Below are positions 35,607-59,547 of a DNA stretch of 64,000 bases, piece after piece. Within the stretch, counting starts at the first letter, position 1. The number at the start of each line of letters is the position of its first letter. The notes beneath the pieces are model-generated. The model ran no database searches, was not told the DNA's origin, and worked only from the letters and a program-made list of their open reading frames with translations. Source of the DNA: Candidatus Nanoarchaeia archaeon (GTDB lineage: Archaea > Nanobdellota > Nanobdellia > Pacearchaeales > GW2011-AR1); NCBI GenBank assembly GCA_041501125.1, contig JBGQNO010000001.1, positions 37,981-101,980 of the forward strand. The letters are read 5' to 3'. Made by a program: the position numbers and the translations under genes.

Positions 35607-35770
35607 AAAATAAAAAAAGCAAGACAGCTTTTTGGTTTCGCCTCTTGTGAAGACTACACCCAAAAACGTAACCAGCTTAACTTCTGTGTTCGGAAAGGGA
35701 ACAGGTGTTTCCTGGTTACTATGGCCGTCTTAACTTTAATCAATATGACTCGCTTTTAAAGTTTTCTATA

Positions 35771-41843: not shown

Positions 41844-41852
41844 ATTTGAAAA

Positions 41853-42308
41853 ATGAACAATCAGCCACGATACTCGCTCAAGAATATAACAGACAAAAAA
41901 AACAAGAATGCTTTTGTTCAACTTATTAAATACTTTTTTACAGGCGGCATTGCAGCAGTAATTGACATAGGGTCTTTTTTATTATTCTCAATAAGTTTGC
42001 ATATTGATTACAGAATTTCAATAGTTCTTAGCTTTACCTTGGGCACATTAACTAACTTTTTCATATGCAATGCTTTTGTTTTTGAACGGAAAAGCCTGTC
42101 ACTATTCGCAGCAGCATACAGGCATTACCTATCGAGCCTTGGCGGACTGGTAACCAATGAGATAGTTATGATGTTTCTTATTGAACTTTTGAATTTCAGC
42201 AATCTGCTTATCGCAAAATTAATAGCTACTGCAGCAGCATTCATGGTTAATTTTTTGTTGATTAAATTTTATGCATTTAACAGCAAGATTAAAATACTCC
42301 AAAACTAG
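41853..42308 (+). CDS. GtrA-family polysaccharide-synthesis membrane protein
   Basis: 151 aa, 4 TM. KYFFTGGIAAVIDIGSFLLFS is a GtrA signature. Confidence 0.6.
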   Translation: MNNQPRYSLKNITDKKNKNAFVQLIKYFFTGGIAAVIDIGSFLLFSISLHIDYRISIVLSFTLGTLTNFFICNAFVFERKSLSLFAAAYRHYLSSLGGLVTNEIVMMFLIELLNFSNLLIAKLIATAAAFMVNFLLIKFYAFNSKIKILQN

Positions 42309-42317
42309 CGTTTTCCC

Positions 42318-44837: not shown

Positions 44838-46343
44838 ATGGAACGTGGCTTGAAGGAGCAAGTTGTTAAGAATTCATTCTGGGCTTTCGCATCTTCTTTG
44901 ATAAACAGGCTTGGAGCATTAATTTTCACAATCATACTTGCACGATTCCTGCTTCCAGAAGGTTTTGGATTATATTCAATTGTCCTATCAACAGCAATGA
45001 TATTCTACACATTTGCAGACCTTGGAATAAACTCAACAATGATAAGGTATGTCTCGCATGCCCTCGCAAATAATAAAAAGAAAGTCTATGCATATCACCG
45101 TTATTTGCTCAAGGTAAAGTTTTTCCTGACACTGGCAGTGTCAGTTGTGTTGCTTGCCCTGTCCTATCCTCTGGCACTTTATGTTTTTAAGAACTCTGCA
45201 TTATTTGTTCCATTCATAACGTCTGCATTTTACATTTTTGTGCTTTCATTTGACACCTTTTATACATCATTTTTCTATACAATTGAAAAAGTGCAGTATG
45301 TCAGCTTTAAGGAGTCATTAAGCCAGATTCTCAGAATTGTTTTTGCACTTGTGGTGTTCTATGTTCTGGCATCTTCATATTATGTTGCAGGAATATTTGT
45401 ATCCTTGGCATTAATTTCATTATTCCTTGTTATTTTTATGTTGTATTACTTGAAAAAGTTGATTCCAGAGATATTCCTGCATCCTGGAAAAGAAATTGGG
45501 ATTGACAAAGCAAGAGTTTTGAAATTTGCAGGTTTCCTGACAATTGCAAGCATCTCTACAATATTCTTTTCTTATGTAGACTCAATTATGCTTGGAATGT
45601 TTTTGAAGCCAGAGTTTGTTGGTTTCTATCGTGCGGCATTCTCGCTTGTTTCAGGAGTTTCAGCCATTATTCTTGCACCAGCAGTTATTTTGTTGCCAAT
45701 GTTCACAAAACTTAAAAAATCCAAAACTGAAAATGCATTAAACCAGATTTTCAAGTATCTTACAATCTTTGCAGTTCCAGCAGCATTCGGCTTGCTTATT
45801 CTTGGAAAATATTTTGTAAGATTTTTCTATGACTATTCATACATTCCAGCAGCCCTGCCTCTTTATTTTCTTTCATTTTTAATAATTCCAGTAGTTTACG
45901 TGTCTGTTTTCCTTCCGCTTTTTTCAGCACGGGAAAAACCGCAGATTTTTGCAAAAATAATTGTGGCAGCAAGCATACTCAACATAATACTAAACTACAT
46001 TTTAATCAAGGCACTTCTTCCAGTATCGTCAATCTGGGCAACTGCCGGAGCCAGCATAGCTACTTTGACAAGCTGGATTTTCTATCTTATTGCAGTTGTT
46101 TATGTCTCTAAAAAAGAACTTGGCATTGCAGTTTCATTTAAGCATTTAATCAGGCCATTTATTGCAGGCATTATTATGTCCGGAGCTGTGCTTTATACAA
46201 TGACCTTCTTCAAGGACATGACTTTTATCTCAGGCACATTAGAGATATTGCTGGGCATACTAGTTTATTTCGGCGCATTGTTCTTGATAGGCGGGATAAA
46301 ACGCGAAGATTTTGAACTTATCAAGTTATTAAGAAGATTATAG
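44838..46343 (+). CDS. Wzx-like oligosaccharide flippase (MOP superfamily polysaccharide transporter)
   Basis: 501 aa, about 14 TM helices. N-terminal polysaccharide biosynthesis protein pattern. Confidence 0.6.
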   Translation: MERGLKEQVVKNSFWAFASSLINRLGALIFTIILARFLLPEGFGLYSIVLSTAMIFYTFADLGINSTMIRYVSHALANNKKKVYAYHRYLLKVKFFLTLAVSVVLLALSYPLALYVFKNSALFVPFITSAFYIFVLSFDTFYTSFFYTIEKVQYVSFKESLSQILRIVFALVVFYVLASSYYVAGIFVSLALISLFLVIFMLYYLKKLIPEIFLHPGKEIGIDKARVLKFAGFLTIASISTIFFSYVDSIMLGMFLKPEFVGFYRAAFSLVSGVSAIILAPAVILLPMFTKLKKSKTENALNQIFKYLTIFAVPAAFGLLILGKYFVRFFYDYSYIPAALPLYFLSFLIIPVVYVSVFLPLFSAREKPQIFAKIIVAASILNIILNYILIKALLPVSSIWATAGASIATLTSWIFYLIAVVYVSKKELGIAVSFKHLIRPFIAGIIMSGAVLYTMTFFKDMTFISGTLEILLGILVYFGALFLIGGIKREDFELIKLLRRL

Positions 46344-46389
46344 CTTCTGTTACATAATCATTTATAAACCGCTTCTTTCAAATAAAGGA

Positions 46390-47745
46390 ATGGCAAAAGT
46401 TCTTTTGATACAGCCAAATTATGATATCAGCACACCGTATAGATGGCAGTCAGAAGCATGGATGCCGCTTGCCCTTGTCTCACTGGCAACTTATGTCAGA
46501 GACAAGAAAGGTCATGAAGTCAAAATTTATGACAGAAACTTGGACTATAACAATAACGGTTTTATTAGCATTTTAAGAAAATTTAATCCAGACATTGTTG
46601 GTTTAACATGTTATACATCACCTGCAATAAAGGATGTTATGCAGGTTTCTAAAATTACAAAGGAAAATTCCAAGGCAATAGTTCTTGTAGGTGGTCCGCA
46701 TGCCACGCTTGAGCCAAAGTCATTGCTTGATTATCAATACATTGATTATGTTGTTCGTGGCGAGGGCGAGCAGCCTCTTCTAGAAATCTGCGACCTTGTT
46801 GACAAGAAAAAAGCTGCAAAAAATAACATCTCAAAATTGAAAAACGTAAACTATAATGAAATGAGGCCCTTCATTAATCTTAACGATGTTCCTATAATGG
46901 ATTACGACCTGATTGATGTCAAAAGATACACAGTAACTACCTTTGCAACCAGCAGGGGCTGTCCGGGAAGATGCAGATTCTGCTACAACCAGGGAAGAAA
47001 GTTAAGATTCTATGATACTGCAAACACAATTGAGATGATGTCAAGAGTGATAAAAAAATACAGGATAAAAGAGTTTACAATAGCAGACGATAATTTTGCA
47101 AACATGAGCAAGAGAACTACGGACATATGCAATGCCTTGGCAAAATATAATTGCTCATTTTTCTGCTTTCTAAGAACTGACCAAGTCTATGACAAGGTAA
47201 TGTCTGAGTTAAAGAAAGCAGGTTGTCTTACAATTCAGTTTGGTTTTGAATCAGGCAGCCAAAGAATTCTTGATTTTATACGCAAAGACAATACAGTTGA
47301 GCAGAATGCAAAAGCTGTTGAGCAATGCAGGAAATACGGGATTTTTGTAGAAGGAAGCTTTATGATTGGACTGCCGACTGAAACAACCCAGGAACTTCAG
47401 CAAACAATCAGCTTCATAGAAAAAAATAAGCTCGATAATGTATTTACAAAAGTCTACAAGCCATATCCATCAACCGAACTTTATGATTATTGCATACAAA
47501 ACAAGCTGATGAAAAAGCCGGAAACACTTGAGCAGTGGATTGAATTCTCAAATCTTTCAGAAGGCAACATAAACGTGAGTGACATTCCCACACAGGTTTT
47601 GCTTAAGGCATTGCAAAGAACCAATAAACACGACGTATTAATGTACATTAAGAAAGGTTTGATAATGGTAAAAAGAGGAAACATCAGCTACGCATTATTG
47701 AGAGCCAAGCAACTGATAACTCAGCAACTTAAGAAATTCATTTAA
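46390..47745 (+). CDS. B12-binding (class B) radical SAM enzyme
   Basis: 451 aa. N-terminal cobalamin-binding-like domain. CxxxCxxC radical SAM cluster motif SRGCPGRCRFC. Confidence 0.8.
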   Translation: MAKVLLIQPNYDISTPYRWQSEAWMPLALVSLATYVRDKKGHEVKIYDRNLDYNNNGFISILRKFNPDIVGLTCYTSPAIKDVMQVSKITKENSKAIVLVGGPHATLEPKSLLDYQYIDYVVRGEGEQPLLEICDLVDKKKAAKNNISKLKNVNYNEMRPFINLNDVPIMDYDLIDVKRYTVTTFATSRGCPGRCRFCYNQGRKLRFYDTANTIEMMSRVIKKYRIKEFTIADDNFANMSKRTTDICNALAKYNCSFFCFLRTDQVYDKVMSELKKAGCLTIQFGFESGSQRILDFIRKDNTVEQNAKAVEQCRKYGIFVEGSFMIGLPTETTQELQQTISFIEKNKLDNVFTKVYKPYPSTELYDYCIQNKLMKKPETLEQWIEFSNLSEGNINVSDIPTQVLLKALQRTNKHDVLMYIKKGLIMVKRGNISYALLRAKQLITQQLKKFI

Positions 47746-48421
47746 ACTTTCTGGCTTTAATGACAAAGAATGAAGAGAAAATATTTGGACTAAGATTTGC
47801 CATCATCAGCCTAAGTCTATAGGGCAGCAAAAGATTTCCTGTCTTTGAAACCAGTCTTCTGGCAAATTCTTTTAGATTTCCAGTGTTGAGCGGCTCATTC
47901 CCATTAAATTTAGGCGAGTAATATGCATACACTATTTCAAACCCTTGACACTCAATCAGTCCTAATAGTTTTTCTTTTCTAAACCACTGCTTGTGGTGCG
48001 AGCCATCAGGCTTTACATTCGGCACGCTTATTATCACTTCACCGCCGATTTTCAAAATGCGTTTTATTTCACTGACAGTAAACTCAGGCCTGTCAAGATG
48101 CTCAAGGACCTCGCAACAATATACAGTATCAAATGAGCCATCCTTAAAAGGAAATTTCTTTTCGACATCACCTTTAACAACATCAAAATTAAATCTTTTC
48201 TTCGCGAATTCCAGTCCAGAATCTGAAATGTCAAACACTATTGCATTCTTGACACCAAGATACGCAAGCATTTGCCCATTCCCTCCACCAACATCAAGAA
48301 TCTTTTTCTTTTCTTTTGGCATTATTGACGTCCTGATTTTGTCATACGCCTTTTCATAATATCTTGTTCTTTTGCGTTCTTCAAACTGGTTTTGCCAATA
48401 GTCAGAGTAATCATATTTCAT
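47738..48421 (-). CDS. Class I SAM-dependent methyltransferase
   Basis: 227 aa. Motif I ILDVGGGNGQM, plus CCEVLEHL. Confidence 0.75.
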   Translation of the reverse strand: MKYDYSDYWQNQFEERKRTRYYEKAYDKIRTSIMPKEKKKILDVGGGNGQMLAYLGVKNAIVFDISDSGLEFAKKRFNFDVVKGDVEKKFPFKDGSFDTVYCCEVLEHLDRPEFTVSEIKRILKIGGEVIISVPNVKPDGSHHKQWFRKEKLLGLIECQGFEIVYAYYSPKFNGNEPLNTGNLKEFARRLVSKTGNLLLPYRLRLMMANLSPNIFSSFFVIKARKFK

Positions 48422-49364
48422 GTTTCAAAATCCTCTTGTAAAGGTCAAGATGCTTTCTGGCGACTTCTTCCCATGTTAATGTAATTTCTTTGCTTAATCT
48501 TGCTGCTCCTTTTCCTATCTCATTCCTCAACTTTTTGTCCTTAACAAGCTCTTTGATTCCTTTTGCAAGGTCATTGGTAAGATATGCAGTTTCCCTATGA
48601 GTCAAGAGATAACCAGGCCTGCCTTGAAAAGCAAGTATTGGTCGTCCAGCCCTTATGTACTCAAAGAATTTGAAGCTGCTGTCCTGGTCAGCTGGATTTA
48701 TCAGAATATCTGCTTGCTTCAAAACAGATGGAATTTCATCTGCAGGAATAAAACCCATGAAGTGAACATTTTTTCCAGCAGTCTTCTGGAATTCAGGATT
48801 CGGTTTTCCGAATAAGTATAGCTCACAATCCAAGCCCTGAACAGCATCTATCATCTTGTCCGTCTGCTTGTATCTTGACTGGTCACCAATGTAAACAACT
48901 TTAACTTTTCCTTTAAGTCTTATTTCAGTTAGCTTGACATTTGGCTGAACTCCATGTGGAATAAACTCTACTTTCTTGCCAAGAATCCCAGCCTTTACTT
49001 GATTATATTTGCTCATTGTCGTTATGTAGTCAGAATTAAGAATTGCAAACATCTCAAGATAGCTAGGCAAAGCTCCCCATTTCTTACCCATCTGCTCCGC
49101 ATAATAATCATCCCACATATGCACAATCGGCGTTCTTAGCAAGCCAATTTTCTTGAAGAATGATGGAATAAAGCCAGCAATTCCTGTAGCTACAACAATA
49201 TCTGGCTTAAATCTAAGATACTCAATATAAAACTTCCAGAAACTTCTTTTTGTTATCACGCGAACTTCATTGCCAAATTTTCTGAAAAAATACACGTCAG
49301 ATGTCAAACCCCATGGAACCTTGTCATATGTGTCCAGGTCAACTGCTACGAATAGGATTTTCAT
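48411..49364 (-). CDS. Glycosyltransferase (GT-B fold, GT1/GT4-like)
   Basis: 317 aa. C-terminal donor-binding region FMGFIP...ADILINPA...FEYIRAGRPILA. Confidence 0.5.
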   Translation of the reverse strand: MKILFVAVDLDTYDKVPWGLTSDVYFFRKFGNEVRVITKRSFWKFYIEYLRFKPDIVVATGIAGFIPSFFKKIGLLRTPIVHMWDDYYAEQMGKKWGALPSYLEMFAILNSDYITTMSKYNQVKAGILGKKVEFIPHGVQPNVKLTEIRLKGKVKVVYIGDQSRYKQTDKMIDAVQGLDCELYLFGKPNPEFQKTAGKNVHFMGFIPADEIPSVLKQADILINPADQDSSFKFFEYIRAGRPILAFQGRPGYLLTHRETAYLTNDLAKGIKELVKDKKLRNEIGKGAARLSKEITLTWEEVARKHLDLYKRILKHEI

Positions 49365-49400
49365 GTTTTGATTTACTTCTAGTGATATATAAAATTTTGT

Positions 49401-50015
49401 TTACTTGATTTTCTTGGCGACAATGTGGAAACTCCAGTAAGCATCCCGGCTTGGATTAAACTCTAATATTTTCATTCCATTTTCATTCAAAAATTTGTTG
49501 ACAACTTCATACGTAGGAATCCATTTGTGATTGTCGCTTACCCACGGGCCATTTGCATTCCACAGTTTCATAGATTTATGAGGAATGTAAAGGAATAATA
49601 TCCCGCCAGTTTTAAGTTTGCTTATCCACAGTTCAAGCGCTTCTTGCCACCTGTCAAGATGCTCAAGGCAATGGGAACTGAACACATAGTCTAAACTTCC
49701 ATCTTTGAAGTTGTCAAGCTTGTAGGCATTTTGTCTAGGTTCATTCTCAATTGGAACTGCTCCAGGAAACGGGAATCTTCCAGCACCAACATCAATTCCT
49801 TTTCCCTTGCAGAAATCTTTTGCCCTATTAAGTATAAATGCCATTGCATTGCTTTTGTTTAAATATTCTGGATATAGTTCGCCCTGATATTTGTAAAAAA
49901 CCTTTCCATTTATCTCAATTCGCTTGATTTGGCGCCTTCTCCACGCATTTAACAAGAAATAAAATACCTTTTTTGGGCTTGCTATGAAGCTTTTGAGTTT
50001 TGATGACAGTTCCAT
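49401..50015 (-). CDS. SAM-dependent methyltransferase
   Basis: 204 aa. GIDVGAGRFPF motif I, plus FSSHCLEHL. Confidence 0.6.
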   Translation of the reverse strand: MELSSKLKSFIASPKKVFYFLLNAWRRRQIKRIEINGKVFYKYQGELYPEYLNKSNAMAFILNRAKDFCKGKGIDVGAGRFPFPGAVPIENEPRQNAYKLDNFKDGSLDYVFSSHCLEHLDRWQEALELWISKLKTGGILFLYIPHKSMKLWNANGPWVSDNHKWIPTYEVVNKFLNENGMKILEFNPSRDAYWSFHIVAKKIK

Positions 50016-50096: not shown

Positions 50097-51161
50097 ATGG
50101 CATTTAGCAGCATCAAAAACATATTCACTTCGCATCAGAAGGAAGCAGTCAAAAATATATTGAGAGATTTTGTTTATTACACCTGGAAGTTCCTTAGCCC
50201 CTACAAACAAATACTTGATTCTAAAGACATTAAACATGTGCTTGTGGTAAACAAAGGTGTAATCGGTGACTTGCTTGTTATAACACCGATGATAAAAGCG
50301 CTTGCTAAAAAATACCAGAAAGTAGACATTCTTATGCGGCAGGACATGGCAGAGATATTATCTGGAAATTCCAACATAAACAAACTCATGTTCTACACTA
50401 ATTTTGATGACGTGCTTAAGCAGATTAAAGGCAAATATCAGCTGGCTATACTCTTTAATCCGCCAACCTATGAGATGAAGAATCTATGCAGGCAAGCAGG
50501 CATAAAATACATTGTAGGAAACAGTTTTTCATACTCCTTGTCTGATTTTCTCTTAACAGCCAGAACACGAGAAAATTCCAATGAACATTTTGTCCAGAAA
50601 GCACTGGACCAAGCAAGGCTTGCTAATGCAGACATCAAAAACCCAAAAACAGAATTCTTTTTCTCAAAAAAAGATGAGGCATACGTTGAAGATATGCTGA
50701 AATCAAATAAGATTAAAGACTTTGTAGCTGTTCATGCAGGCAAGCGCGGCAATATTAAAGACCCAAATACAAAAAGATTCTTCTGGCCTTCAGAGAGATT
50801 TGCCCAGGTTATTGATTACATTGTCCAAAAATATAAACTTCCAGTTATTCTTACAGGCTCAAGCATGGAAAAAGAAAGAAACGAAGAAATAATGTCTCTT
50901 GTAAAATCAAAAAATGTTTTTAATTTCTGTGAAAAAACAACTCTTAAACAATGGGCGTGTTTGCTGAAGAAAGCCAAGCTTCTTGTAAGCCTGAATACAG
51001 GTGCAACACATATCGCAGCCGCTATGAACACTAAAACAATTGTAATAAATGAAGAATTTCCAGAACTCTGGCATCCATGGCTTCCAGAATCAAGATATAG
51101 AACTTTGCCTTATCCATCAATTGAGCAAGCCAAGGAAGCAATTGATGAGATGTTAGATTAA
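50097..51161 (+). CDS. Glycosyltransferase family 9 (heptosyltransferase-family)
   Basis: 354 aa. GDLLVITPMIKALAKKY N-terminal pattern and C-terminal LVSLNTGATHIAAAMNTKTIVI GT9 signature. Confidence 0.7.
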   Translation: MAFSSIKNIFTSHQKEAVKNILRDFVYYTWKFLSPYKQILDSKDIKHVLVVNKGVIGDLLVITPMIKALAKKYQKVDILMRQDMAEILSGNSNINKLMFYTNFDDVLKQIKGKYQLAILFNPPTYEMKNLCRQAGIKYIVGNSFSYSLSDFLLTARTRENSNEHFVQKALDQARLANADIKNPKTEFFFSKKDEAYVEDMLKSNKIKDFVAVHAGKRGNIKDPNTKRFFWPSERFAQVIDYIVQKYKLPVILTGSSMEKERNEEIMSLVKSKNVFNFCEKTTLKQWACLLKKAKLLVSLNTGATHIAAAMNTKTIVINEEFPELWHPWLPESRYRTLPYPSIEQAKEAIDEMLD

Positions 51162-51165
51162 CATC

Positions 51166-52274
51166 TTAAATGAAATCTAAGCCACAATAACAATTCTTGC
51201 ATACAGGCAACATCTTGTCTATAAAAGCATTTTTTCTAAATTCTTTAAATTTCTTAGAGTTCCATATGTTATCAATATTATCAGTTAGAATATTTCCCAT
51301 ATTCATTCTAATAAAACCACATGGAATTATGTCACCATTATAGTCCAAAAAAAGCATGTTTCTTGCCGTGCAGATTAGTCTCTTTGACCTTAAACTGAAT
51401 ACATTGTAATTAGACGATTCTTTTAAAATAGGGTTAATCTCAATCCGGGCATCAATATTTTTCATTCTTTTGTATGTTTCAAAAAACTCTTTTATACTAA
51501 TATTATCACTTTGCATACAAGTCGATATCATCCCCCCCCCCCGTCAATAATTTTTAATGTATCTTCAATTTGCCCACTTTTCATATTTTGAATAGGATAA
51601 GTTAACCCAAATGATTTTGTCCCTAGGTCCTTGCACAATTTAATAACTTTTTCTGCATCATGAATGTTCTCTTTTTGCAAAACAAAATTAATACCCACAT
51701 CAAAATTTTTAGTCAAAATTTTTATAGTCTTTACTGTTTTGTTAAAAGCCCCGATTCTTCCACGGATTTTGTCGTGAGACTCTTGTAGTCCATCTAAGGA
51801 TATTGAGACGCCGGTAATCGGATAGTTCTTTAATTTCTCTGCAATATTTTCATTGATAAGAGTACCATTGGTTCCAAATTCTATGTTCATTTGATTGTCT
51901 TTTATACAGTCAAGAATTTGAAACAAATCATCTCTCAGAAGGATTTCACCACCAGTTAAACAAATCTTTTTGATGCCAAACTTCTTTAAAGAGAATATAG
52001 CCTTCTCAATCTCTTTTGAAGACAACTCATCTGCATGCAGTTTATTCAGATTTTTAGCTCTGAACTCTTTTTGATGGCACATCTGGCAATTTAGATTACA
52101 TCTCATAGTAAGAAAAATTAGAGCATTTTTTGGCTTAGGAAAGTCTGCCATATTCTTAATCCTTGAATAATCTACTCTTTTCTTTAATTTTGAATATGCT
52201 CTTATTATATACTCGCCAAAGATGTTACTATCTAATGATTTTATAAGTTTTTCTTTCAAAAGTTTAAAGTTCAT
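51166..52274 (-). pseudogene. Radical SAM enzyme with C-terminal SPASM domain, split by a frameshift inside an 11-nt poly-G/C tract
   Basis: Upstream part 51528-52274: CNLNCQMC radical SAM motif, ends ...IIDGGGG then TGA. Downstream part 51166-51531: SPASM Cys motifs CTARNM...CGF...CKNCYCG. A +1 G (12 G) would fuse the frames. Confidence 0.75.
51532..51542. repeat. Homopolymeric C(11) tract (G(11) on the coding strand) at the frameshift site
   Basis: Read directly: tccccccccccccg spanning 51532-51542. Confidence 0.9.
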
Positions 52275-53089
52275 TTTGTAATCTCTATCCTCTTTGCGTA
52301 AAGAACATTCAGCCCGTTATTTCCAGGATACAGCATCCTGACATCAAACCCGTTTTTCTCAAGAAAGTTTTTCATTGTCTGCACATCTCTTTTCTCGTCA
52401 AGAGCATGAACTTCCATGCTTATCTTGTCAATCCTTTTAAGAAGTTCTGGAGCAGAGAAAAGAATTTCATATTCTGCTCCTTCGCAGTCGCATTTAAGAA
52501 AATTTATCCTGTCTATTTTGTTCATCGCAAAAACATCCTTCAATGAAATTGTCTTTATCGAAAATTTCTGCCTGTTCTCGCCGCCTGTTATGTAAAATGA
52601 ATGCCCTCCGGTGTTTATGCCAGAAACCATTATGTCTTTGTTGCCAGTCTTGTCAGAAACACCAGCATTATATGCAACAACATTCTTCAAATTATTCAGT
52701 TTTGCATTATCCTTAAGCCTGTCAAAATTCTCCTTTACAGGCTCAAATGCATAAACTTTTCCTTCAGAAGCTTTTGATGCAGCATAAACAGTAAAAACTC
52801 CAACATTTGCGCCTATATCCATGATAATGTCATTTTTGTTGATTTCAAATCCCTCTGGATTATACTCTTCATATACCCAAATTTCATTTATCATATTCCT
52901 CTCAAAACTGTCAGACTTTATCAGCAACTGAATGCCATTCCTGAACTTATAGACTAAGTTTGTATCTTTGTATTTGCCAAGAAAATCTTTGAAATATGTG
53001 GGCCAATTTTTTATTAGCTTGATAATCTTGAATCCAGCAGCTATCTGCTTGAGTCCTATTTTAGTGTCGCGATTCCTGCTTAATTTCAT
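52271..53089 (-). CDS. FkbM-family SAM-dependent methyltransferase
   Basis: 272 aa. MDIGANVGVFTVYAAS motif typical of Methyltransf_21/FkbM. Confidence 0.65.
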   Translation of the reverse strand: MKLSRNRDTKIGLKQIAAGFKIIKLIKNWPTYFKDFLGKYKDTNLVYKFRNGIQLLIKSDSFERNMINEIWVYEEYNPEGFEINKNDIIMDIGANVGVFTVYAASKASEGKVYAFEPVKENFDRLKDNAKLNNLKNVVAYNAGVSDKTGNKDIMVSGINTGGHSFYITGGENRQKFSIKTISLKDVFAMNKIDRINFLKCDCEGAEYEILFSAPELLKRIDKISMEVHALDEKRDVQTMKNFLEKNGFDVRMLYPGNNGLNVLYAKRIEITK

Positions 53090-54174
53090 TTTTCACTCAA
53101 ATTAGCGTCTTTTATTAACTTTTCCAATTTAGGCAGAAGAATCTTCCAGTCAAACCTTTTGACATTTTTTCTTGCTTCTTTGCCCATTTTTATTGCAAGT
53201 TTCTTGTTGTCAGCCAAGAAATCAATAGTCTCAGCTATGCTCTCAGGCCTGACTCCATCCAGAAGAAAACCTGTTTTTCCATTTATTACGCTCTCGCGTA
53301 ATCCACCCTCGTTTTCACCGATTATAACTTTTCCAGAAGCTCCTGCTTCCAGAGGCACAAGCCCCCAGTCTTCATTAATGCATATGCTTATCACTCCAAG
53401 GCAATTTGCATACAATCTGGCAAGTTCCTTGTCAGACACGTTTCCAAGAAATTTAACATTGGAATAATTTTTGCACAACTCAACTATTTTGTCCTTGTCA
53501 GGCCCATCACCTACAACATAAAGCTCAATGTCTTTGTTCTTTACAAGCCCCATGCTTTTGATTGCAATATCCACTCGTTTGGCAGGAACAAATCTTCCAA
53601 CAGACAGGATATAATTTTGATAGCTTTTTGGCTTGTAGTCATTATAATTTATTCCATGATAGACTACTTGTGCATCTCGTCCATAATACTTTTTCACTCT
53701 CTCACGTACATTTATGCTGTTAGTTGCTATTGTCTTTATGTTCTGGGCAGCCAGTTTGTCAAGTCCCTGAAAAAGAAGCTTTTTCAGCACCAAGGATATT
53801 TTTCCCAGGAAGCTGGCATTATTCCAGTAATATCTTCGCAAATCATAAAAATCTCTTTTTGGAGAATAACAAACCCAGAATACATTGTCATTTCTTAAAC
53901 TTGCAAAATTTGTCGGCCAGTCATTTGCAATAACAACATCAAATCCATCAAATTTCTTGAACCAAAACACAAATGGCGAGAAGATTTTTGACTTTAGCCC
54001 AAGAAGATTTATCTTCAGTTTCTTGAAACCAGGATATGCTGTTTCGGAATTGTATCTCTGGGTAAAGATTTCAACTTCATGCCCTCTTTTCTGCAGGTAA
54101 AGTGCGTAGGTTTCTATAACTCTCTGGGCACCGCCAATTCCCTCAATATAAGGCTGGAGTATTGCTATCTTCAT
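53086..54174 (-). CDS. Glycosyltransferase family 4 (GT-B)
   Basis: 362 aa. E-x7-E motif region GENEGGLRESVINGKTGFL. Confidence 0.75.
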   Translation of the reverse strand: MKIAILQPYIEGIGGAQRVIETYALYLQKRGHEVEIFTQRYNSETAYPGFKKLKINLLGLKSKIFSPFVFWFKKFDGFDVVIANDWPTNFASLRNDNVFWVCYSPKRDFYDLRRYYWNNASFLGKISLVLKKLLFQGLDKLAAQNIKTIATNSINVRERVKKYYGRDAQVVYHGINYNDYKPKSYQNYILSVGRFVPAKRVDIAIKSMGLVKNKDIELYVVGDGPDKDKIVELCKNYSNVKFLGNVSDKELARLYANCLGVISICINEDWGLVPLEAGASGKVIIGENEGGLRESVINGKTGFLLDGVRPESIAETIDFLADNKKLAIKMGKEARKNVKRFDWKILLPKLEKLIKDANLSEK

Positions 54175-54232
54175 ACATTTTTTAGAATGGTTATATATTT
54201 AAATTCGTTTCTTTATCATAAAATGCCTGAAA

Positions 54233-55369
54233 ATGGAAAGTTTTGCAACGAATTTAGCGACATTGTTTAGAAGACTTGGTGTAATGGCAGATTATATAGC
54301 CTGGCTTCTGCTTGACCCAAGCAAATTTACTATAATAAAAAAAGAAAAAATCAAAAAAGTCTTGGTTATTCATCTGGGTGCTATTGGAGAAGTCATTATC
54401 TCAACCCCGATTATTCCTGCTTTGAAAAAATCATTGAAAGCACAAATAGTATACATGGTTTCCCCTGGCAAGGAAGTTCTTTTTGAAAATAATCCTTATA
54501 TAGACAAGGTTTTGACTTATCAGGACAATTTCTGGAAAAATATTGATGCCTTGAAAAAAGAAAAATTTGACATTGTGTTTATTATTTATCCAAGCTCCCA
54601 GAAACTGGCTCTTGAATGTCTTTTAGCTGGAATAAAATACAGGATTGGAGGATTTAAGGCAGTAAAATCTCCACTTAACCTGCTTCTGACAAGAAAAATG
54701 CTTGACTTCAGGAAAAAACACGCTGTTCACTGCAATCTTGATGTTATAAGAACTATAGGCATTGACAACAAAAATCCAGAGCTTGAACTGCATATTCCAG
54801 ACATTTACAACAGGAAAATCAATAATCTGCTGAAACAGCTTAAGATAAAAGAATTTGTAATTATCCATCAGGGTTCAAGTTTCCTGGGCAAATTGAAATA
54901 TCCGTCAAGGCTTTGGCCATTGGACAGATATGCAAAAGTTGCAGACTTTATTTCTAAAAATTATAATGTCAAAATCCTGATTACAGGCGCTCCTGGAGAA
55001 ACGCCATTTACAAACGAATTAATAAAGCAAATAAAAGATAAAAGAAATGTCATTAACCTTTCAGAGAAGCTGAATCTTGGAGATATGATGGCTCTTGTTT
55101 CCAGGGCAAAACTATTGATTGCACCAAGCACAGGCATTGCTCATATTGCAGCAGCCTTAGGAACTCCGATGGTTCATTTGTCAGGTCCGGACGGTTATCA
55201 CTGGCAGCCATGGGCCAAGAAAGGCAAGTGCATTGCAATACAGCACCTTGAAGTATGCACAGGATGCAACACTATAATCTGCAGAAAGAAAAATACAGAA
55301 TGTTTAAAAGCCATAACTGTCAGCGATGTAACCCAGGCAGCAAAGCATTTCCTGGGGAAAATTAAGTAA
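54233..55369 (+). CDS. Glycosyltransferase family 9 (heptosyltransferase-family), second copy
   Basis: 378 aa. LIAPSTGIAHIAAALGTPMVHLSGP GT9 signature. KKVLVIHLGAIGEVIISTP N-terminus. Confidence 0.75.
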   Translation: MESFATNLATLFRRLGVMADYIAWLLLDPSKFTIIKKEKIKKVLVIHLGAIGEVIISTPIIPALKKSLKAQIVYMVSPGKEVLFENNPYIDKVLTYQDNFWKNIDALKKEKFDIVFIIYPSSQKLALECLLAGIKYRIGGFKAVKSPLNLLLTRKMLDFRKKHAVHCNLDVIRTIGIDNKNPELELHIPDIYNRKINNLLKQLKIKEFVIIHQGSSFLGKLKYPSRLWPLDRYAKVADFISKNYNVKILITGAPGETPFTNELIKQIKDKRNVINLSEKLNLGDMMALVSRAKLLIAPSTGIAHIAAALGTPMVHLSGPDGYHWQPWAKKGKCIAIQHLEVCTGCNTIICRKKNTECLKAITVSDVTQAAKHFLGKIK

Positions 55370-55415: not shown

Positions 55416-56906
55416 ATGGCTAAGAAAATTCTTTTGGGCGCAGAATATTCAGTTTTAGAGCCCCTGGCATTGTTCTATCTTTCAGCAGTCGCCAAATCTG
55501 AAGGAGTTGAGTCTAAAATTGTTTTTGGCAGAGGCCCTCAATATCCAGAATGGAGAGAAGCTTTAAGCACATTCCAGCCTGATTTTCTAGGACTAAGTGT
55601 CTATACCGGACACCATGCTGCAATCAAAAAATTCTTAAAAGACGTCGTCAAGCCAAAATATCCAACTCTTGAAGTAATTGTTGGAGGCCCTCATGCAACC
55701 TTCTTTCCAAGACAGGTTTTAGATTTTGCAGATTACGTTGTTGTAGGAGAGGGATTTGGTTCATTAAGAAAAATTTTGAAAGGTGAAGCTCCAAAAGGGA
55801 TACTTCTCCCACTGGATAAGGAACAGTTTCCAAAGTCTGACAGGGATGATTTTTACAAAGAATACCCGGAGCATCTTAAAAATAGAATCAAGAATGTTAT
55901 AGCTGGAACAGGCTGCCCATACATGTGTTCATATTGTTATAATAGTGCAAATTTTGACGAAAATCCTGACTTTGATGAATCACAGAAAAAACTTTTGCTT
56001 GAAAAATATCCTCATAAAAGGTTCTTTCCCTTGGAGCAAAGGCCTGTTCAGGATTTTGTTGATGAAATTTCAGATGTCCTCAGATTATCTCCTGAGACAG
56101 AATTTTTTTATTTCCAGGATGATGTTTTTGGCAGTAACCTGGACTGGCTGAAAGAATTTGTTTCCAAAGCTTCTATAATGGACATATCTTTCCATGCAAA
56201 TACACGATTTGAACATATTGACCCAAGAAAGGATTCTGGAAAAGAAAGAATTGACTTGCTGAAAAAAGCAGGCTGTACAGGGTTTTCAATAGCTATAGAA
56301 TCAGCAGACCCTATTATTTGCAGGGAAGTTTTGTCAAGAAATCTCGACCATGATTTAGTATTTGCTTCAATGAATTATCTTCATGAGCACGGATTCAAAG
56401 TCAGAACCAATAATATGCTTGGACTGCCGCTTGGAGCAACTATGAATCCGACAAAAGTCAATCTTGAAGCAGACCTGGAAACTCTTGAGCTGAATGTCAA
56501 GTTATACAAAGAATTTGGCATTCCAACTTTCGCATGGGCTTCTACACTTGCACCTTATCCAGGAACGCATATTGACAGATACTGCAAAGAGCATGGTTTC
56601 TATGAGAATGTCTTTACAGATTTAACAGGAGAAGAAACCTACAGGATTAAAAGTGTTCTAAGGCATCCAAGAAAATGGGTTGGCTCGGAATTATCATCAA
56701 AAACACCTGAGGTATGGCTGTCCAATTATGAAGAGGAAATGTACAGGAATCAGATTAATACTTTAATGAACTTATTTCCGACTTTTGCGAAAATTCCTGA
56801 TGGGCATAAACTTGCCCGGGAATTTTTAGAACACGATAATCTTAATTTTGAAGTTCTTAATAAAGCATTCAGAACGCATGTATACAATAAAGAACTCTTT
56901 TTATAA
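55416..56906 (+). CDS. B12-binding (class B) radical SAM enzyme
   Basis: 496 aa. N-terminal B12-binding-like fold. Cluster motif GTGCPYMCSYCYN. Confidence 0.75.
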   Translation: MAKKILLGAEYSVLEPLALFYLSAVAKSEGVESKIVFGRGPQYPEWREALSTFQPDFLGLSVYTGHHAAIKKFLKDVVKPKYPTLEVIVGGPHATFFPRQVLDFADYVVVGEGFGSLRKILKGEAPKGILLPLDKEQFPKSDRDDFYKEYPEHLKNRIKNVIAGTGCPYMCSYCYNSANFDENPDFDESQKKLLLEKYPHKRFFPLEQRPVQDFVDEISDVLRLSPETEFFYFQDDVFGSNLDWLKEFVSKASIMDISFHANTRFEHIDPRKDSGKERIDLLKKAGCTGFSIAIESADPIICREVLSRNLDHDLVFASMNYLHEHGFKVRTNNMLGLPLGATMNPTKVNLEADLETLELNVKLYKEFGIPTFAWASTLAPYPGTHIDRYCKEHGFYENVFTDLTGEETYRIKSVLRHPRKWVGSELSSKTPEVWLSNYEEEMYRNQINTLMNLFPTFAKIPDGHKLAREFLEHDNLNFEVLNKAFRTHVYNKELFL

Positions 56907-56943
56907 AATAAGGCTTATAAAGTCAAAAGTAACTTCTTAACTA

Positions 56944-58305
56944 ATGAAAATCAACCTTATCGTTCTTCCATTTGAAGAAAATGTCAAGTCACCGCCGATT
57001 TGTCTCGGTTATATAGCCTCGCTTTTAAAGAAAGACAGTAATGATATCAAAATCATAGACTTAAACTTTGAAACTCAGATTTCTCAGGCAGATTTGAATA
57101 TTGTAACTACAACAACAGTCGATTACTATAACTGCCCTTTATTGAATATGGATGTTATTGACAAATGGCTCTCTGTTATTTCCAAGATAAAAACACCCCT
57201 TGCAGTCATAGGTCCGCATGTTACAACAATGCCTGAATATTTTGAAAAATATGCCCAGTATCTTGTTGTAGGCGAGCCAGAACTCACAATAAAAGAACTG
57301 GTTGTTTCATTAACAGAAGGTAAGTCACTAAAAAATATAAAAGGACTTTATTATAAGCAAGGCAGGAAATTTATCAAGAATAAGTCCCGTGAATTGCTTC
57401 AAAATCTCGATAGTTTGCCTTTTCCAGACAGAAGTTTGATTGATAATTCTCGCTATGTTAATCCAGTATGCAAAAATCATCCTTACACGATGGTCATTTC
57501 AAGTAGAGGATGTCCATACCACTGCACATACTGTTATATGGATGTCTACGGGCATTTTTGGAGAGCAAGAAGCGCTAAAAATGTAGTTCAAGAATTAATA
57601 GAAATCAGAAGAAAGTATAATATAAAAGAAATTGTCTTTCGCGATGATTTATTCTCGCTTGACAAAAAGCGCGTTATAGAAATCTGCAATGGTATTGTAA
57701 AGAATAATCTTGATTTGACATGGACCTGCCAGACCCGGGTTGATTCTGTAGACGAAGAAATAATAAGCAAGATGAAAGAAGCCGGCTGTTACTCTATATC
57801 CTTTGGCATAGAAGCCGGCTTGCAAGAGATGATGAACCGGTTGAAAAAAGGAATTAAAGTCGAGCAGGTCAAGAAAGCAATCTTTCTCTGCAAGAAATAT
57901 GATGTAAGAACAAGAGGATATTTTATAATTGGCTGTCCAGGCGAGACAAAAGAATCAATTCAGCAGACACTTGAACTTGCCAAAGAGCTTGACTTGGACT
58001 ATTTTATGCTTAGTATACTAACACCATATCCTCAGACAGAAATTTATGAAGATGCTTTTAAGAAGCGAATTATTAAAAAACGAAGTTGGGATGAAGCGCT
58101 GAGATGCGCAGGCATTATTGAAACGCCTTTTACATTCAATGAACTTGTGAAAATGAAGCGTGATTTATATTTAAGATATTATTTCAGGCCAGGATACATA
58201 CTGCCAAGATTAGCGCCTGGAAAAATAGACATGCTTTACCATGGCTTCATGCCGTTTGTCAAAAACATGATGATAAGAAAATTCAGAGGCAAAAAACTGG
58301 ATTAA
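56944..58305 (+). CDS. B12-binding (class B) radical SAM enzyme
   Basis: 453 aa. Cluster motif SSRGCPYHCTYCYM. N-terminal B12-like domain. Confidence 0.75.
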   Translation: MKINLIVLPFEENVKSPPICLGYIASLLKKDSNDIKIIDLNFETQISQADLNIVTTTTVDYYNCPLLNMDVIDKWLSVISKIKTPLAVIGPHVTTMPEYFEKYAQYLVVGEPELTIKELVVSLTEGKSLKNIKGLYYKQGRKFIKNKSRELLQNLDSLPFPDRSLIDNSRYVNPVCKNHPYTMVISSRGCPYHCTYCYMDVYGHFWRARSAKNVVQELIEIRRKYNIKEIVFRDDLFSLDKKRVIEICNGIVKNNLDLTWTCQTRVDSVDEEIISKMKEAGCYSISFGIEAGLQEMMNRLKKGIKVEQVKKAIFLCKKYDVRTRGYFIIGCPGETKESIQQTLELAKELDLDYFMLSILTPYPQTEIYEDAFKKRIIKKRSWDEALRCAGIIETPFTFNELVKMKRDLYLRYYFRPGYILPRLAPGKIDMLYHGFMPFVKNMMIRKFRGKKLD

Positions 58306-59498
58306 TTCTTGACAAGTTTTCTGTACATGCTAAAAGTTTCCTTGGCAATCTCTCTCCACGAGAATTTCTTTTCTGCTGTTTTCCTTGCAATCTTGCCAAG
58401 TAAATCTCTTTTCTTTTCATTTCCCAGAAGACTCGTAAGCTGTTTTGCCAGTTCATCAGATTTAATTGGGTTAAAATACAGAATTTCTTTATTCTTGCCG
58501 AGTTCCATGTTTGGTGCAATGTTTGATGATATTATTGCAAGCCCAGACGCCATTGCTTCAAGCAGGACAAGAGGCAACCCTTCTGCAAAACTCGGAAGAA
58601 CAAAAATATCAGCAGCCCGGTAATATTCAGGCATTTTGATATTCTCAACACTTCCAATAAATTTGACATATTGCTGAAGATTGTTTTCATTGACAAAATT
58701 CATAATCTCCTCAAAATATTTTTTATCATCAATTTGCCCGATAAAAATGAATTTTACATTCTTGTCCTTGGACAAAACTTTTGGAATAGCTTTGATTATT
58801 GCCATCTGGTTCTTGATTCTTGAAATCCTTGCAACGCACAATACTATCTTTTCATCAGTCTTGGCAAGCATTTTCCTCACACCAGACTTGCCTGGATAAA
58901 ATTTGATTAAATCAACACCATTTGAAATATGAATAACTTTTTTGGAATCAACACCTGCGCGTTTTTCTATTGATTTTTTTAAGGTTTCAGACACTGCAAC
59001 GACCTCATCAGCATTTTTGAAGCATAGTCTTTCTACTGAAGTTTTCAGCCAGAATGTCTTTGGCAGCATCTCATTGGACAAAGTCCAGAATGGTGTGTGC
59101 AAAGTATAAACAAATTTGCTTTTGTAAAATAATCTGTTCATTAACGAGAGTGCAAAGCCAGTGTACTGGTTATGGCAGTGTATTATGTCAAATTTCTCCT
59201 TACACATCAAAGGAATGAAATTAACCAGTGTCTTGATTGTGTATAACATTCTTCTTGCCACATGTCTTAATGTGCCAGGTGTTGTGTATACATCAGGCCC
59301 CCATGCTTTTGGCATGTCAATATTATGGTAGATAACCCCGGATAATTTATCTCGGTTATTATCCTTAAAATCAAGGATATGAACCTCACAAAGCTTGCTA
59401 AGTTCCTTTGACAGGTTGTATGCTACAGATTCTGTTGCTGTAGCACTCTTGGCAGAAATTGAGGACATTCCAGTCCCGACTTGCAAGACTTTCATGAC
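58302..59498 (-). CDS. Glycosyltransferase family 4 (GT-B)
   Basis: Start trimmed to MKVLQVGTGMSSIS. The track ORF extends to 59786 through low-complexity sequence. FAEGLPLVLLEAMASGLAIIS motif. Confidence 0.7.
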   Translation of the reverse strand, partial: VMKVLQVGTGMSSISAKSATATESVAYNLSKELSKLCEVHILDFKDNNRDKLSGVIYHNIDMPKAWGPDVYTTPGTLRHVARRMLYTIKTLVNFIPLMCKEKFDIIHCHNQYTGFALSLMNRLFYKSKFVYTLHTPFWTLSNEMLPKTFWLKTSVERLCFKNADEVVAVSETLKKSIEKRAGVDSKKVIHISNGVDLIKFYPGKSGVRKMLAKTDEKIVLCVARISRIKNQMAIIKAIPKVLSKDKNVKFIFIGQIDDKKYFEEIMNFVNENNLQQYVKFIGSVENIKMPEYYRAADIFVLPSFAEGLPLVLLEAMASGLAIISSNIAPNMELGKNKEILYFNPIKSDELAKQLTSLLGNEKKRDLLGKIARKTAEKKFSWREIAKETFSMYRKLVKN

Positions 59499-59547
59499 AT
59501 ACAGAAAAGAAAATAATTTATAAAGGTTGCCTGTTTGTCCGATTGCA

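Follow-up and report, generated by a model that had tools for sequence, protein, structure and literature searches.

Organization of the locus

The 64-kb stretch of DNA analysed here (the window) was assigned to a Pacearchaeota-related DPANN-type archaeon. The archaeal host assumed in the initial annotation is borne out by genes in the window for DP2 and the small subunit of PolD, for Cdc6/Orc1 and DUF655, and for RNA polymerase and ribosomal components of archaeal type; among named relatives, those closest to the island proteins come from Pacearchaeota, Nanoarchaeota and Woesearchaeota MAGs. Roughly 40–63.5 kb of the window appears to form a surface-glycan assembly island of ~24 kb, which runs past the window end and has the span 50097–55369 as its core. 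This span runs from the exact start of one GT9 ORF to the end of a second, and both motifs originally quoted for it are present, LNTGATHIAAAMN in GT9-1 and PSTGIAHIAAALGTP in GT9-2. The genes are as follows.

40056–41843, plus strand: GT-C/PMT_2 protein, probable start of the glycan island
41853–42308, plus strand: GtrA, probable island start region
42318–43355, plus strand: NAD-dependent sugar epimerase/dehydratase, probable island start region
43352–44779, minus strand: FAD oxidoreductase, PRK07208 family, probable island start region
44838–46343, plus strand: Wzx-like flippase (Pfam), upstream part of the same island
46390–47745, plus strand: B12-radical SAM protein (Pfam)
47738–48421, minus strand: SAM methyltransferase (Pfam)
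48411–49364, minus strand: GT4-like protein (Pfam)
49401–50015, minus strand: methyltransferase (Pfam)
50097–51161, plus strand: GT9-1 (PF01075; 354 aa)
51166–52274, minus strand: radical SAM/SPASM gene, split by a frameshift into two ORFs that carry PF04055 and PF13186 separately
52271–53089, minus strand: FkbM-family SAM methyltransferase (PF05050, 78.5 bits)
53086–54174, minus strand: GT4 glycosyltransferase (PF00534, 117 bits; PF13439), lying between GT9-1 and GT9-2
54233–55369, plus strand: GT9-2 (PF01075; 378 aa)
55416–56906, plus strand: first B12-binding radical SAM protein (PF02310, B12-binding; PF04055; NCBIfam B12-rSAM match below cutoff)
56944–58305, plus strand: second B12-binding radical SAM protein (PF04055; NCBIfam B12-rSAM match below cutoff)
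58302–59786, minus strand: GT4 glycosyltransferase (PF00534/PF13439; orthologues 418 aa), the real start probably internal, near 59495
59548–60423, plus strand: GT2 glycosyltransferase (PF00535; 291 aa with the ATG at 59548 as start), directly upstream of the NTase-MT gene
60465–61856, plus strand: NTase-MT fusion (TIGR02199 plus class I SAM methyltransferase; 463 aa)
61881–63476, plus strand: multi-pass membrane GT-C-like protein (weak PMT_2 match, PF13231, 28.3 bits; ~9 predicted TM segments)

The gene order from 44838 to 50015 is colinear with the related locus L015, and the radical SAM pair at 55416–58305 is syntenic in L001, L002 and L015; the GT2 start was compared with the L001 and L002 gene calls. 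L002/L015 encode the radical SAM/SPASM protein in one gene of 367 aa; the frameshift here coincides with a G11 tract (plus strand: C11, 51532–51542), the only G/C run of at least seven in the window.

Two divergent GT9 glycosyltransferases

Both ORFs are GT9-family (GT-B) glycosyltransferases, confirming the first claim made for this locus: against Pfam PF01075 (Glyco_transf_9, gathering score 22), GT9-1 scores 64.6 bits (E = 1e-17) and GT9-2 80.1 bits (E = 2e-22), and the two share 29–32% identity. GT9-1 matches PDB entries 3TOV and 1PSW, and the AF2 model of GT9-2 (pLDDT 88.9) returns 3TOV (E = 4e-23), WaaF and WaaC as its top Foldseek matches. PF01075 and the GT-B fold are thus held in common with WaaC/WaaF/WaaQ and the uncharacterised Veillonella GT9 protein (PDB 2H1H, 1PSW, 3TOV), the nearest structures being 3TOV (TM 0.76–0.83) and WaaF (TM 0.72–0.81). 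The 'NTGATH' of GT9-1 is kept in its orthologues in L001 (70% aa identity) and L015 (62%), and the DPANN-specific GT9 clade comprises at least 35 clusters with conserved catalytic positions (residue conservation for GT9-2 was scored in 27 DPANN homologues).

Relative to WaaC-type enzymes, the H266 equivalent and the T/S-G of the donor-binding signature are kept, and position D13 stays acidic, as the 'GD' catalytic Asp in GT9-1 and as Glu in GT9-2. The differences are that GT9-2 has Arg for K192, an additional helix at the N-terminus and a C-terminal Cys4 motif specific to its clade, and that the canonical heptosyltransferase signature D(T/S)(G/A)XXH was found in neither GT9: D261 is replaced by Asn in GT9-1 (N-T-G-A-T-H) and by Ser in GT9-2 (S-T-G-x-x-H, WahF-type). 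Neither protein reaches an NCBIfam LPS-heptosyltransferase equivalog cutoff (Hep I/II/III), the scores falling far below. The D261A mutation lowers WaaC activity about 2000-fold (PMC5713226). However, WahF, a heptosyltransferase with S261, has been validated experimentally, so that Ser at this position is compatible with heptose transfer; GT9-2 exactly matches the signature S(T/S)(G/A)XXH, reported to be unique to the WahF group of L,D-heptosyltransferases (Actinobacillus, Aeromonas), and D,D-heptosyltransferases typically have Arg in place of K192 (PMC3559599). WahF works on the outer core of LPS. The archaeal host here has no LPS, so the acceptor cannot be Kdo2-lipid A. Across the GT9-2 clade the D261 position varies between S, G and D, whereas D is kept in the GT9 genes that directly adjoin GmhA in L005 and L014. 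The same Asn and Ser variants occur in a sister genome that has a full HldE and are therefore not linked to loss of the kinase (see below).

A heptose-1-phosphate adenylyltransferase-type domain fused to a methyltransferase

The RfaE-like activator of the initial annotation is real, but it lies about 5 kb outside the span with which it had been grouped, as the N-terminal part (about aa 1–165, nt 60465–60959) of the NTase-MT fusion. Residues 15–158 score 185.6 bits (E = 4e-55) against TIGR02199 (rfaE_dom_II), above the curated cutoff of 181.5 bits, with the HSGH motif at aa 37, and the best PDB match is Burkholderia HldC (5X9Q, 112 bits), compared with 50 bits or less per domain for ethanolamine-P and glycerol-3-P cytidylyltransferases. 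With the second domain of bifunctional HldE, from DPANN and bacteria alike, it shares 50–62% identity, and the fusion aligns to these bifunctional proteins from the interdomain linker onward. An assignment as a heptose-1-phosphate adenylyltransferase-type (HldC/HldE-domain-II) domain is supported by these sequence comparisons. The C-terminal xSTx motif is kept. The STTR5 arginine is absent, which makes ADP, rather than CDP or UDP, the likeliest carrier.

Unlike bifunctional HldE, the window protein has no PfkB kinase domain (that of the syntenic L002 gene is missing here and in L001); it carries instead, behind a linker, a class I SAM methyltransferase (about aa 178–463, nt 60996–61856; matched from about residue 222), which relatives encode in a downstream gene of its own. 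Apart from the window protein, P0001 is the one carrier of this fusion among the best 150 matches from 1.84 billion representatives. It is lineage-specific and under strong purifying selection: compared with L001, the NTase domain shows 16 synonymous and 2 non-synonymous differences (omega 0.03) and the methyltransferase domain a dN/dS of 0.05. Although the sister island is otherwise 89–96% identical, its NTase domain shares only 59% identity with that of the window, which points to a replaced or rapidly diverged allele.

The lost kinase domain, the frameshifted radical SAM/SPASM gene and the fact that outside archaea the nearest homologues are bacterial could suggest that LPS-core genes were once acquired from bacteria and that the two GT9 genes and the truncated RfaE-like gene are what is left of them, decaying and without function. 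With omega of 0.03–0.16 across the NTase, the methyltransferase and GT9-2 (0.14–0.16 against L001 and L002), this is very improbable and, as far as substitution patterns can tell, effectively refuted; the ORFs are moreover intact and syntenic in three independent metagenomes, and the breadth of the GT9 clade argues in the same direction.

Heptose pathway genes in the window and in related loci

In the window, the ADP-heptose pathway is visible only at its last step. A search for the isomerase and kinase/phosphatase, the check proposed at the outset, came back empty within the 64 kb: DPANN queries run by tblastn and Pfam scans covering every larger ORF turned up no GmhA, GmhB or heptose kinase, nor remnants of them. 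Since the HldE of the island no longer has its kinase half, we infer that the genome encodes GmhA, GmhB (or a replacement) and a heptose kinase elsewhere.

Related DPANN loci are more complete. L005 (GCA_043810775.1) reads GT9-GmhA-x-GmhB-HldE-GT-C-GT4-GT2-GT9-GT2-flippase-AglH-STT3; L014 (GCA_043815245.1) has GT9-GmhA-GmhB-HldE-GT-C with a methyltransferase homologue and a second GT9; and L003 has HldE with two GT9 genes. L002/L015 share synteny with the window across the region bounded by the flippase and GT-C genes, both GT9 genes included, and a 5.1-kb block that starts with the first B12-radical SAM gene and ends with GT2 is 88.9% identical in nucleotide sequence; these loci encode a full PfkB+NTase HldE, and flippase-AglH-STT3 follow about 8 kb downstream. 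Of the loci examined, five distinct ones are centred on HldE and span 7.5 kb or more (L002/L015, L003, L005, L006 and L014), and each of them contains a GT9 gene. GT9 genes beside full GmhA-GmhB-HldE sets, sometimes with AglH/AglB, make a strong guilt-by-association case that the surface glycan, probably N-linked, would contain heptose. No published description of DPANN GT9-GmhA-GmhB-HldE modules was found in the literature searched.

The claim of a heptose on a surface glycan accordingly survives in part: the GT9 and NTase identities and the complete modules of relatives uphold it, whereas the kinase domain, GmhA and GmhB missing from the 64 kb and the replaced D261 count against it. These gaps, together with Glu for D13 in GT9-2 and the divergent NTase allele, could also mean that a surface glycan is still made but that the GT9 enzymes use another NDP-sugar, with the NTase activating a different sugar-1-phosphate or phospho-alcohol and the methyltransferase acting on that product. 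GlcNAc-transferase activity is also entered for GT9 in CAZy, which fits such a reading. Set against it are the NTase score above the curated heptose-1-phosphate adenylyltransferase cutoff and its much closer match to HldC than to the cytidylyltransferases, the Asn and Ser variants alongside a full HldE, and the WahF precedent (PMC3559599); we regard it as possible but unlikely.

Proposed route to the cell surface

We favor the heptose-glycan mechanism, at a probability of about 0.55. The paralogous cytoplasmic GT9 pair would each add one heptose to a lipid-linked (dolichol-type) oligosaccharide co-built by the neighboring GT4 and GT2 enzymes. The sugars would be decorated by the island's many radical SAM enzymes and methyltransferases, among the latter the one joined to the adenylyltransferase. 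The product would be exported by the Wzx-like flippase and attached to surface proteins by an AglB encoded elsewhere and/or by the GT-C proteins.

The acceptor could be a different one. Bacterial GT9 enzymes such as WaaC and WaaF act on lipid-anchored acceptors, and the island has two GT-C-like genes (40056–41843 and 61881–63476) and GtrA; homologues of the second lie directly after HldE, or after its trailing methyltransferase, in L001, L002, L005 and L014 (27–85% identity), and a GT-C gene is the conserved immediate HldE neighbor in five loci. AglB/STT3 and AglH were not found within the 64-kb window. Heptose might be made and transferred, with a product that is not an AglB-dependent N-glycan but a membrane lipoglycan, an O-linked glycan or another glycoconjugate, assembled or attached by the flanking PMT_2/ArnT-like GT-C enzymes. 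This is a tentative alternative that we hold to be rather improbable: in L002, L005 and L009, islands syntenic with or related to this one have AglH-like and STT3 genes next to them, and the only archaeal heptose that has been located sits in an N-glycan (PMC11407970).

Heptose was at first considered atypical for archaeal glycans, which overstates the case, as archaeal heptose is already known. D-glycero-D-galacto-heptose is present in the Thermoplasma N-glycan (PMC11407970, PMC12448462), Methanococcus maripaludis strains (KA1/JJ) carry ADP-heptose clusters in their glycan islands (PMC12667266), and assays of NDP-heptose enzymes from archaea have been reported (Tang et al. 2024, as summarized in PMC11573728 and PMC11461863). 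Like those systems, the window places heptose-pathway genes inside a strain-variable archaeal surface-glycan island; it differs in its DPANN host, its explicit GT9 transferases and the local presence of the final pathway enzyme alone. Similar archaeal clusters were therefore known before, and the two GT9 enzymes and the last ADP-heptose enzyme in a surface-sugar island make it probable that this archaeon, too, puts a seven-carbon sugar on its surface.

Genomic context of the GT9 genes

The window is archaeal in content (PolD DP2, PolD small subunit, Cdc6/Orc1, DUF655, archaeal RNA polymerase and ribosomal genes; G+C ~36%), and the closest named relatives of the island proteins are found in MAGs of Pacearchaeota, Nanoarchaeota and Woesearchaeota. 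From ~40 kb to the window end the genes are almost all glycan-related: they encode three GT4, one GT2 and two GT9 glycosyltransferases, two GT-C/PMT_2-like proteins, GtrA, a sugar epimerase, an FAD oxidoreductase and a Wzx-like flippase, together with five methyltransferase genes or domains, three B12-type radical SAM genes and one radical SAM/SPASM gene. No match to STT3/AglB or to an AglH-type transferase was obtained by tblastn in the window, which ends 0.5 kb past the GT-C gene.

Principal features of the glycan island.
46390-47745: B12-type radical SAM gene
50097-51161, plus strand: GT9-1, 354 aa, PF01075
51166-52274, minus strand: radical SAM/SPASM gene, with a C11 run (coding-strand G11) at 51532-51542
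54233-55369, plus strand: GT9-2, 378 aa, PF01075
55416-56906: B12-type radical SAM gene
56944-58305: B12-type radical SAM gene
60465-61856, plus strand: nucleotidyltransferase (NTase)-methyltransferase fusion, 463 aa

The initial annotation had placed two GT9 enzymes and an RfaE-like activator together at 50097-55369. This span runs from the start codon of GT9-1 to the stop codon of GT9-2, and the quoted motifs are present in both ORFs; the activator exists too, but lies outside the span, as the N-terminal part of the fusion at 60465-61856. Between the GT9 genes, a GT4 glycosyltransferase gene, an FkbM methyltransferase gene and the radical SAM/SPASM gene occupy the minus strand.

Two further parts of the island merit description. 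All four radical SAM genes score under the cutoff of every named NCBIfam family, with best partial matches to HpnJ, BchE and PhpK-like proteins, suggesting that sugars undergo unusual C-methylation or rearrangement. The module at 40056-44779 comprises the GT-C/PMT_2, GtrA, sugar epimerase/dehydratase and PRK07208-family FAD oxidoreductase genes, an arrangement reminiscent of polyprenyl-phosphate-sugar pathways; the oxidoreductase, of an uncharacterised family, scores 585 bits against NF005548 and is weakly similar to UDP-galactopyranose mutase.

Family membership of the GT9 pair and predicted fold of GT9-2

Both proteins match the Glyco_transf_9 HMM (PF01075) far above its gathering cutoff of 22 bits (GT9-1, 64.6 bits; GT9-2, 80.1 bits), so that the GT9 assignment is upheld and membership of the family is secure. 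The two are paralogues with 29-32% identity. By sequence, both come closest among solved structures to 3TOV, a GT9 protein of Veillonella, and to E. coli WaaF, with WaaC as a further match for GT9-2. For GT9-1 the comparison with the PDB is by sequence; a structural model was made for GT9-2 with AlphaFold2, using 27 homologues as input (pLDDT 88.9, pTM 0.89). In a Foldseek search of the PDB the model is closest to 3TOV (E = 3.7e-23, TM 0.76-0.83), followed by 1PSW (1.7e-18) and WaaC (~1e-14), and GT9-2 is thus predicted to adopt a GT-B two-Rossmann fold whose nearest neighbours are GT9 structures.

Neither protein reaches the equivalog level of the LPS heptosyltransferases I, II and III (TIGR02193/02195/02201; best GT9 scores 70.9-89.2 bits, cutoffs 134.6-185.3), as expected because an archaeon has no Kdo2-lipid A acceptor. 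Kinship with the TibC/Aah-type (BAHT) protein O-heptosyltransferases was also considered and finds no support: the GT9-2 clade profile retrieved no TibC chain at E <= 1, and the TM scores of the GT9-2 model against TibC are just 0.53-0.55, below those for the LPS-type GT9 structures.

GT9-2 additionally carries a C-x2-C-x4-C-x6-C motif at residues 342-357 (EVCTGCNTIICRKKNTEC), a putative metal-binding knuckle that is kept in 24 of 27 DPANN homologues and missing from 3TOV, WaaF and WaaC. Model confidence drops at this motif.

Signature residues of the GT9 pair

The key residues of WaaC are D13, K192, E222, D261 and H266, the last two within the consensus D261(T/S)(G/A)XXH266 (PMC3559599, PMC5713226). 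This consensus is unmatched in either protein, the corresponding sequences being N-T-G-A-T-H in GT9-1 and S-T-G-I-A-H in GT9-2.

Residues at the key WaaC positions (WaaC residue; GT9-1; GT9-2; GT9-2 clade).
D13; D (IGD); E53 (IGE); E in 26/27
K192; K/R in TKRFFWP, alignment ambiguous; R226; R in 25/27
E222; E (alignment only); E256; E in 25/27
D261; N, same in all three orthologues; S299; S/G/D/N/P across the clade
H266; H; H304; invariant

The glutamate of GT9-2 at the D13 position reads as a conservative replacement. At the K192 position, which contacts heptose O5/O6, the basic residue is provided by R226, and arginine is likewise typical of D,D-heptosyltransferases at this site. Furthermore, the serine variant of GT9-2 exactly matches the S-T-G-x-x-H form of WahF, an experimentally validated heptosyltransferase with the variant motif S(T/S)(G/A)XXH (PMC3559599). 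The same N and S variants at position 261 are found in the sister genome described below, which has a full bifunctional HldE, and are therefore not a consequence of the kinase loss in the window. The GT9 proteins adjoining GmhA in two more distant loci (L005 and L014), unlike GT9-1 and GT9-2, retain both canonical aspartates (D13, D261). Heptose is plausible, but not proven, as the GT9 donor; indirect support for the use of ADP-heptose comes from the gene neighbourhoods alone.

An HldC-type nucleotidyltransferase fused to a methyltransferase

Residues 15-158 of the fusion score 185.6 bits against NCBIfam TIGR02199 (heptose-1-phosphate adenylyltransferase, rfaE domain II), just over the curated cutoff of 181.5, and identity to the second domain of bifunctional HldE proteins is 50-62%. 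Its top PDB match is Burkholderia HldC (5X9Q, 112 bits), well above ethanolamine-P cytidylyltransferase (best single domain, 50 bits) and the glycerol-3-P and choline-P cytidylyltransferases. The HxGH motif is kept (HSGH at aa 37). Heptose-1-phosphate adenylyltransferases share a C-terminal motif, (F/L)XXGXSTT (PMC11573728), which in the window protein reads V-E-I-N-T-S-T-S, with the S-T core retained and the glycine replaced by asparagine. Synthesis of CDP- and UDP-heptose is correlated with an arginine at STTR5 (PMC11573728, PMC11461863); as this position is threonine in the window NTase, a CDP- or UDP-heptose product is disfavoured, which leaves ADP-heptose as the most likely one.

The C-terminal 285 residues form a class I SAM methyltransferase, for which a PDB search returned only generic class I methyltransferases and no clue to the substrate. 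An exact sequence look-up of the fusion gave no match and yielded just a 98% relative, P0001. Neither the best 120 cluster hits nor the 150 best-scoring of 1.84 billion representatives included a further NTase-methyltransferase fusion; the two-stretch matches among the representatives proved to be tandem domains of cytidylyltransferases, fusions to HIT, or ordinary HldE. A reading as pseudogene or relic is rejected on the basis of dN/dS: against the close relative L001, the NTase domain has 16 synonymous and 2 non-synonymous differences (omega 0.03) and the methyltransferase an omega of 0.05, with both domains thus under constraint and the fusion therefore not a product of decay. For GT9-2, omega is 0.14-0.16.

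Kinase loss and the pathway step encoded locally

The PfkB heptose-7-P kinase domain of HldE is absent from the window protein, which starts at the linker between the two HldE domains; the gap between the upstream GT2 gene and the fusion is just 41 bp, with no kinase remnant, and the syntenic gene in the sister island carries the kinase. The NTase is only 59% identical to that of the sister island, whereas the rest of the island is 89-96% identical, and the kinase loss is therefore no simple deletion.

The initial annotation had proposed searching for sedoheptulose-7-P isomerase and heptose kinase/phosphatase. Within the 64-kb window this search came back empty, with no tblastn match of DPANN queries to GmhA, GmhB or the kinase, which leaves the NTase as the sole local step of the ADP-heptose pathway. 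The sugar epimerase at 42318-43355 does not qualify as HldD (86.7 bits, cutoff 274.6; GalE scores higher). A DPANN GmhA query produced no match on the relatives' 511,838- or 111,334-bp contigs among the best 120, which were already mixed with bacterial sequences, and a metagenome scan with the L002 kinase domain yielded three distant loci, with both the window's lineage and L002's own contig absent. As only the NTase is encoded locally, the organism would rely on GmhA, GmhB and a stand-alone kinase elsewhere, or on another source of heptose-1-phosphate.

The second option can be taken further. The HldE kinase half is precisely lost, the fusion and the GT9 genes are under strong purifying selection and no GmhA or GmhB lies nearby; on one reading, such a DPANN archaeon, with its small genome, may have lost the classical heptose-phosphate route altogether, with heptose-1-phosphate obtained from the host or by an undescribed kinase-independent route (e.g. 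a mutase) and used for a methylated heptose glycan. We consider this improbable. More generally, the fusion and the kinase loss together hint at a methylated heptose or an altered precursor supply.

Heptose loci in related archaea

The case is strongest where it draws on the comparative loci. L001, which forms one end of a 511,838-bp JGI contig, contains the same island (92.6% nucleotide identity over the 8.1-kb block that closes it) and the same 463-aa fusion at 98% amino acid identity. The sister island, L002/L015 on a 111,334-bp JGI contig, shares 88.9% nucleotide identity with the window over 5.1 kb, a block that reaches from the first B12-radical SAM gene to GT2; synteny extends from the flippase to the GT-C gene and takes in both GT9 genes. 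Where the window has the fusion, L002/L015 encodes two proteins, a bifunctional HldE of 473 aa (PfkB kinase + NTase) and, after it, a methyltransferase of 288 aa; ~8 kb further on lie a flippase, an AglH-like transferase and STT3/AglB.

More distant DPANN loci extend the pattern. L005 (GCA_043810775.1) has the order GT9-GmhA-(unknown)-GmhB-HldE-GT-C-GT4-GT2-GT9-GT2-flippase-AglH-STT3, and L014 (GCA_043815245.1) the order GT9-GmhA-GmhB-HldE-GT-C with a methyltransferase homologue and a second GT9; L003 combines HldE with two GT9 genes, and the HldE-methyltransferase pair appears again in L006 and L007. The conserved gene downstream of HldE encodes a multi-pass GT-C protein. In L002, L005 and L009, AglH and STT3/AglB are neighbours of an island that is syntenic with, or related to, that of the window. 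Among the loci compared, five distinct ones of 7.5 kb or more are centred on HldE (L002/L015, L003, L005, L006, L014), and each contains GT9. A scan of the GTDB species representatives, which do not include the window's own genome, with a profile of the GT9-2 clade recovered five DPANN loci; just one of these GT9-centred loci has an NTase within 10 kb. The recurrence of GT9 with HldE, GmhA and GmhB indicates that the DPANN GT9 genes are part of a recurrent heptose module in AglB-type glycosylation regions.

In L005, the gene between GmhA and GmhB of the complete heptose operon (L005:8583-9476) encodes a protein of 297 aa that has no confident Pfam assignment. A 56%-identical homologue (L012:4730-5602) lies ~4.4 kb from the central GT9 of its locus. 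The protein, which the window lacks, may belong to the DPANN heptose module as a component so far unrecognised.

Local variability and other features of the window

Among the close relatives, the GT9-1 region (window 50.1-52.3 kb, L001:1-1750, L015:5810-8860) is a divergence hotspot, with GT9-1 only 62-70% identical at the amino acid level between genomes compared with 89-96% for the flanking genes. The neighbour of GT9-1 also varies: a methyltransferase in L001, a methyltransferase plus radical SAM/SPASM in L015 and only radical SAM/SPASM in the window. Together, the divergence and the variable neighbours suggest that genes within the island have recombined or undergone diversifying exchange.

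The G11 tract frameshifts the radical SAM/SPASM gene into ORFs of 248 and 121 aa, and a tract of 9 or 12 nt would bring the two back into frame. The run is the only G/C homopolymer of at least 7 nt in the 64-kb window, in which ~0.001 runs of at least 11 are expected, and the L002/L015 orthologue is a single 367-aa ORF with no tract. Candidate explanations are a homopolymer sequencing or length error and a phase-variable contingency switch in an archaeal glycan locus; the latter, a reading independent of how heptose is supplied, is unlikely.

Three further features lie outside the island.

Features elsewhere in the window.
2260-4896, minus strand: 878-aa protein, sole domain match bacterial Ig-like (Big_13)
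24600-25442 and 28052-28885: tyrosine recombinase (phage-integrase family) genes
35619-35732: stand-alone 5S rRNA gene

The Big_13 protein may be a surface protein and a target of glycosylation. Both recombinase genes are set amid ORFs with no Pfam matches at ~21.4-29.2 kb, which suggests an integrated mobile element. The 5S rRNA gene adjoins tRNA-Arg, tRNA-Leu and tRNA-Trp, with SecF/SecD and then the glycan island following just downstream; a 127-aa TTG ORF that overlaps it (35280-35663) is probably spurious.

A proposed route and its implications

The region is very probably a functional surface-glycan island with true GT9 and HldC-type enzymes, and we put the probability that heptose transfer operates in the organism at slightly better than even (~55%). 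In the route we propose, the NTase domain would adenylylate heptose-1-P, and the fused methyltransferase would act in the same pathway, possibly giving an O-methyl-heptose, as suggested only by the fusion and the conserved adjacency of the two genes. On the cytoplasmic face, where the GT4 and GT2 enzymes also act, a lipid-linked oligosaccharide would then receive one heptose from GT9-1 and one from GT9-2; the glycan would be decorated by further methylation and radical SAM chemistry, exported by the flippase, and attached by AglB, encoded outside the window, or by the GT-C enzymes.

Heptose had initially been considered atypical for archaeal glycans, a view that several precedents show to be overstated: the Thermoplasma N-glycan contains D-glycero-D-galacto-heptose (PMC11407970, PMC12448462), Methanococcus maripaludis KA1 and JJ carry ADP-heptose clusters within strain-variable glycan islands (PMC12667266), and archaeal NDP-heptose enzymes have been assayed and confirmed biochemically (PMC11573728). 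As both heptose in archaeal glycans and ADP-heptose clusters in archaeal glycan islands are already published, the gain from the window is incremental. A full-text literature search found no description of GT9/heptose modules in DPANN archaea; the distinctive points here are the lineage-specific kinase loss with the NTase-methyltransferase fusion, and the divergent DPANN GT9 clade with its Cys4 motif.

Commentaries on the 2024 discovery of non-bacterial heptose-nucleotide enzymes state that why archaea make manno-heptose "remains elusive" (PMC11573728). The DPANN loci suggest a concrete answer: because heptose-pathway genes occur together with genes for GT9 enzymes and flippases, and in some genomes also with AglH and AglB, the most likely destination of the heptose is a surface glycan, probably an N-linked one. 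DPANN archaea such as these are thought to live attached to host cells. In such host-attached organisms, surface glycans could plausibly govern attachment as well as virus or host recognition.
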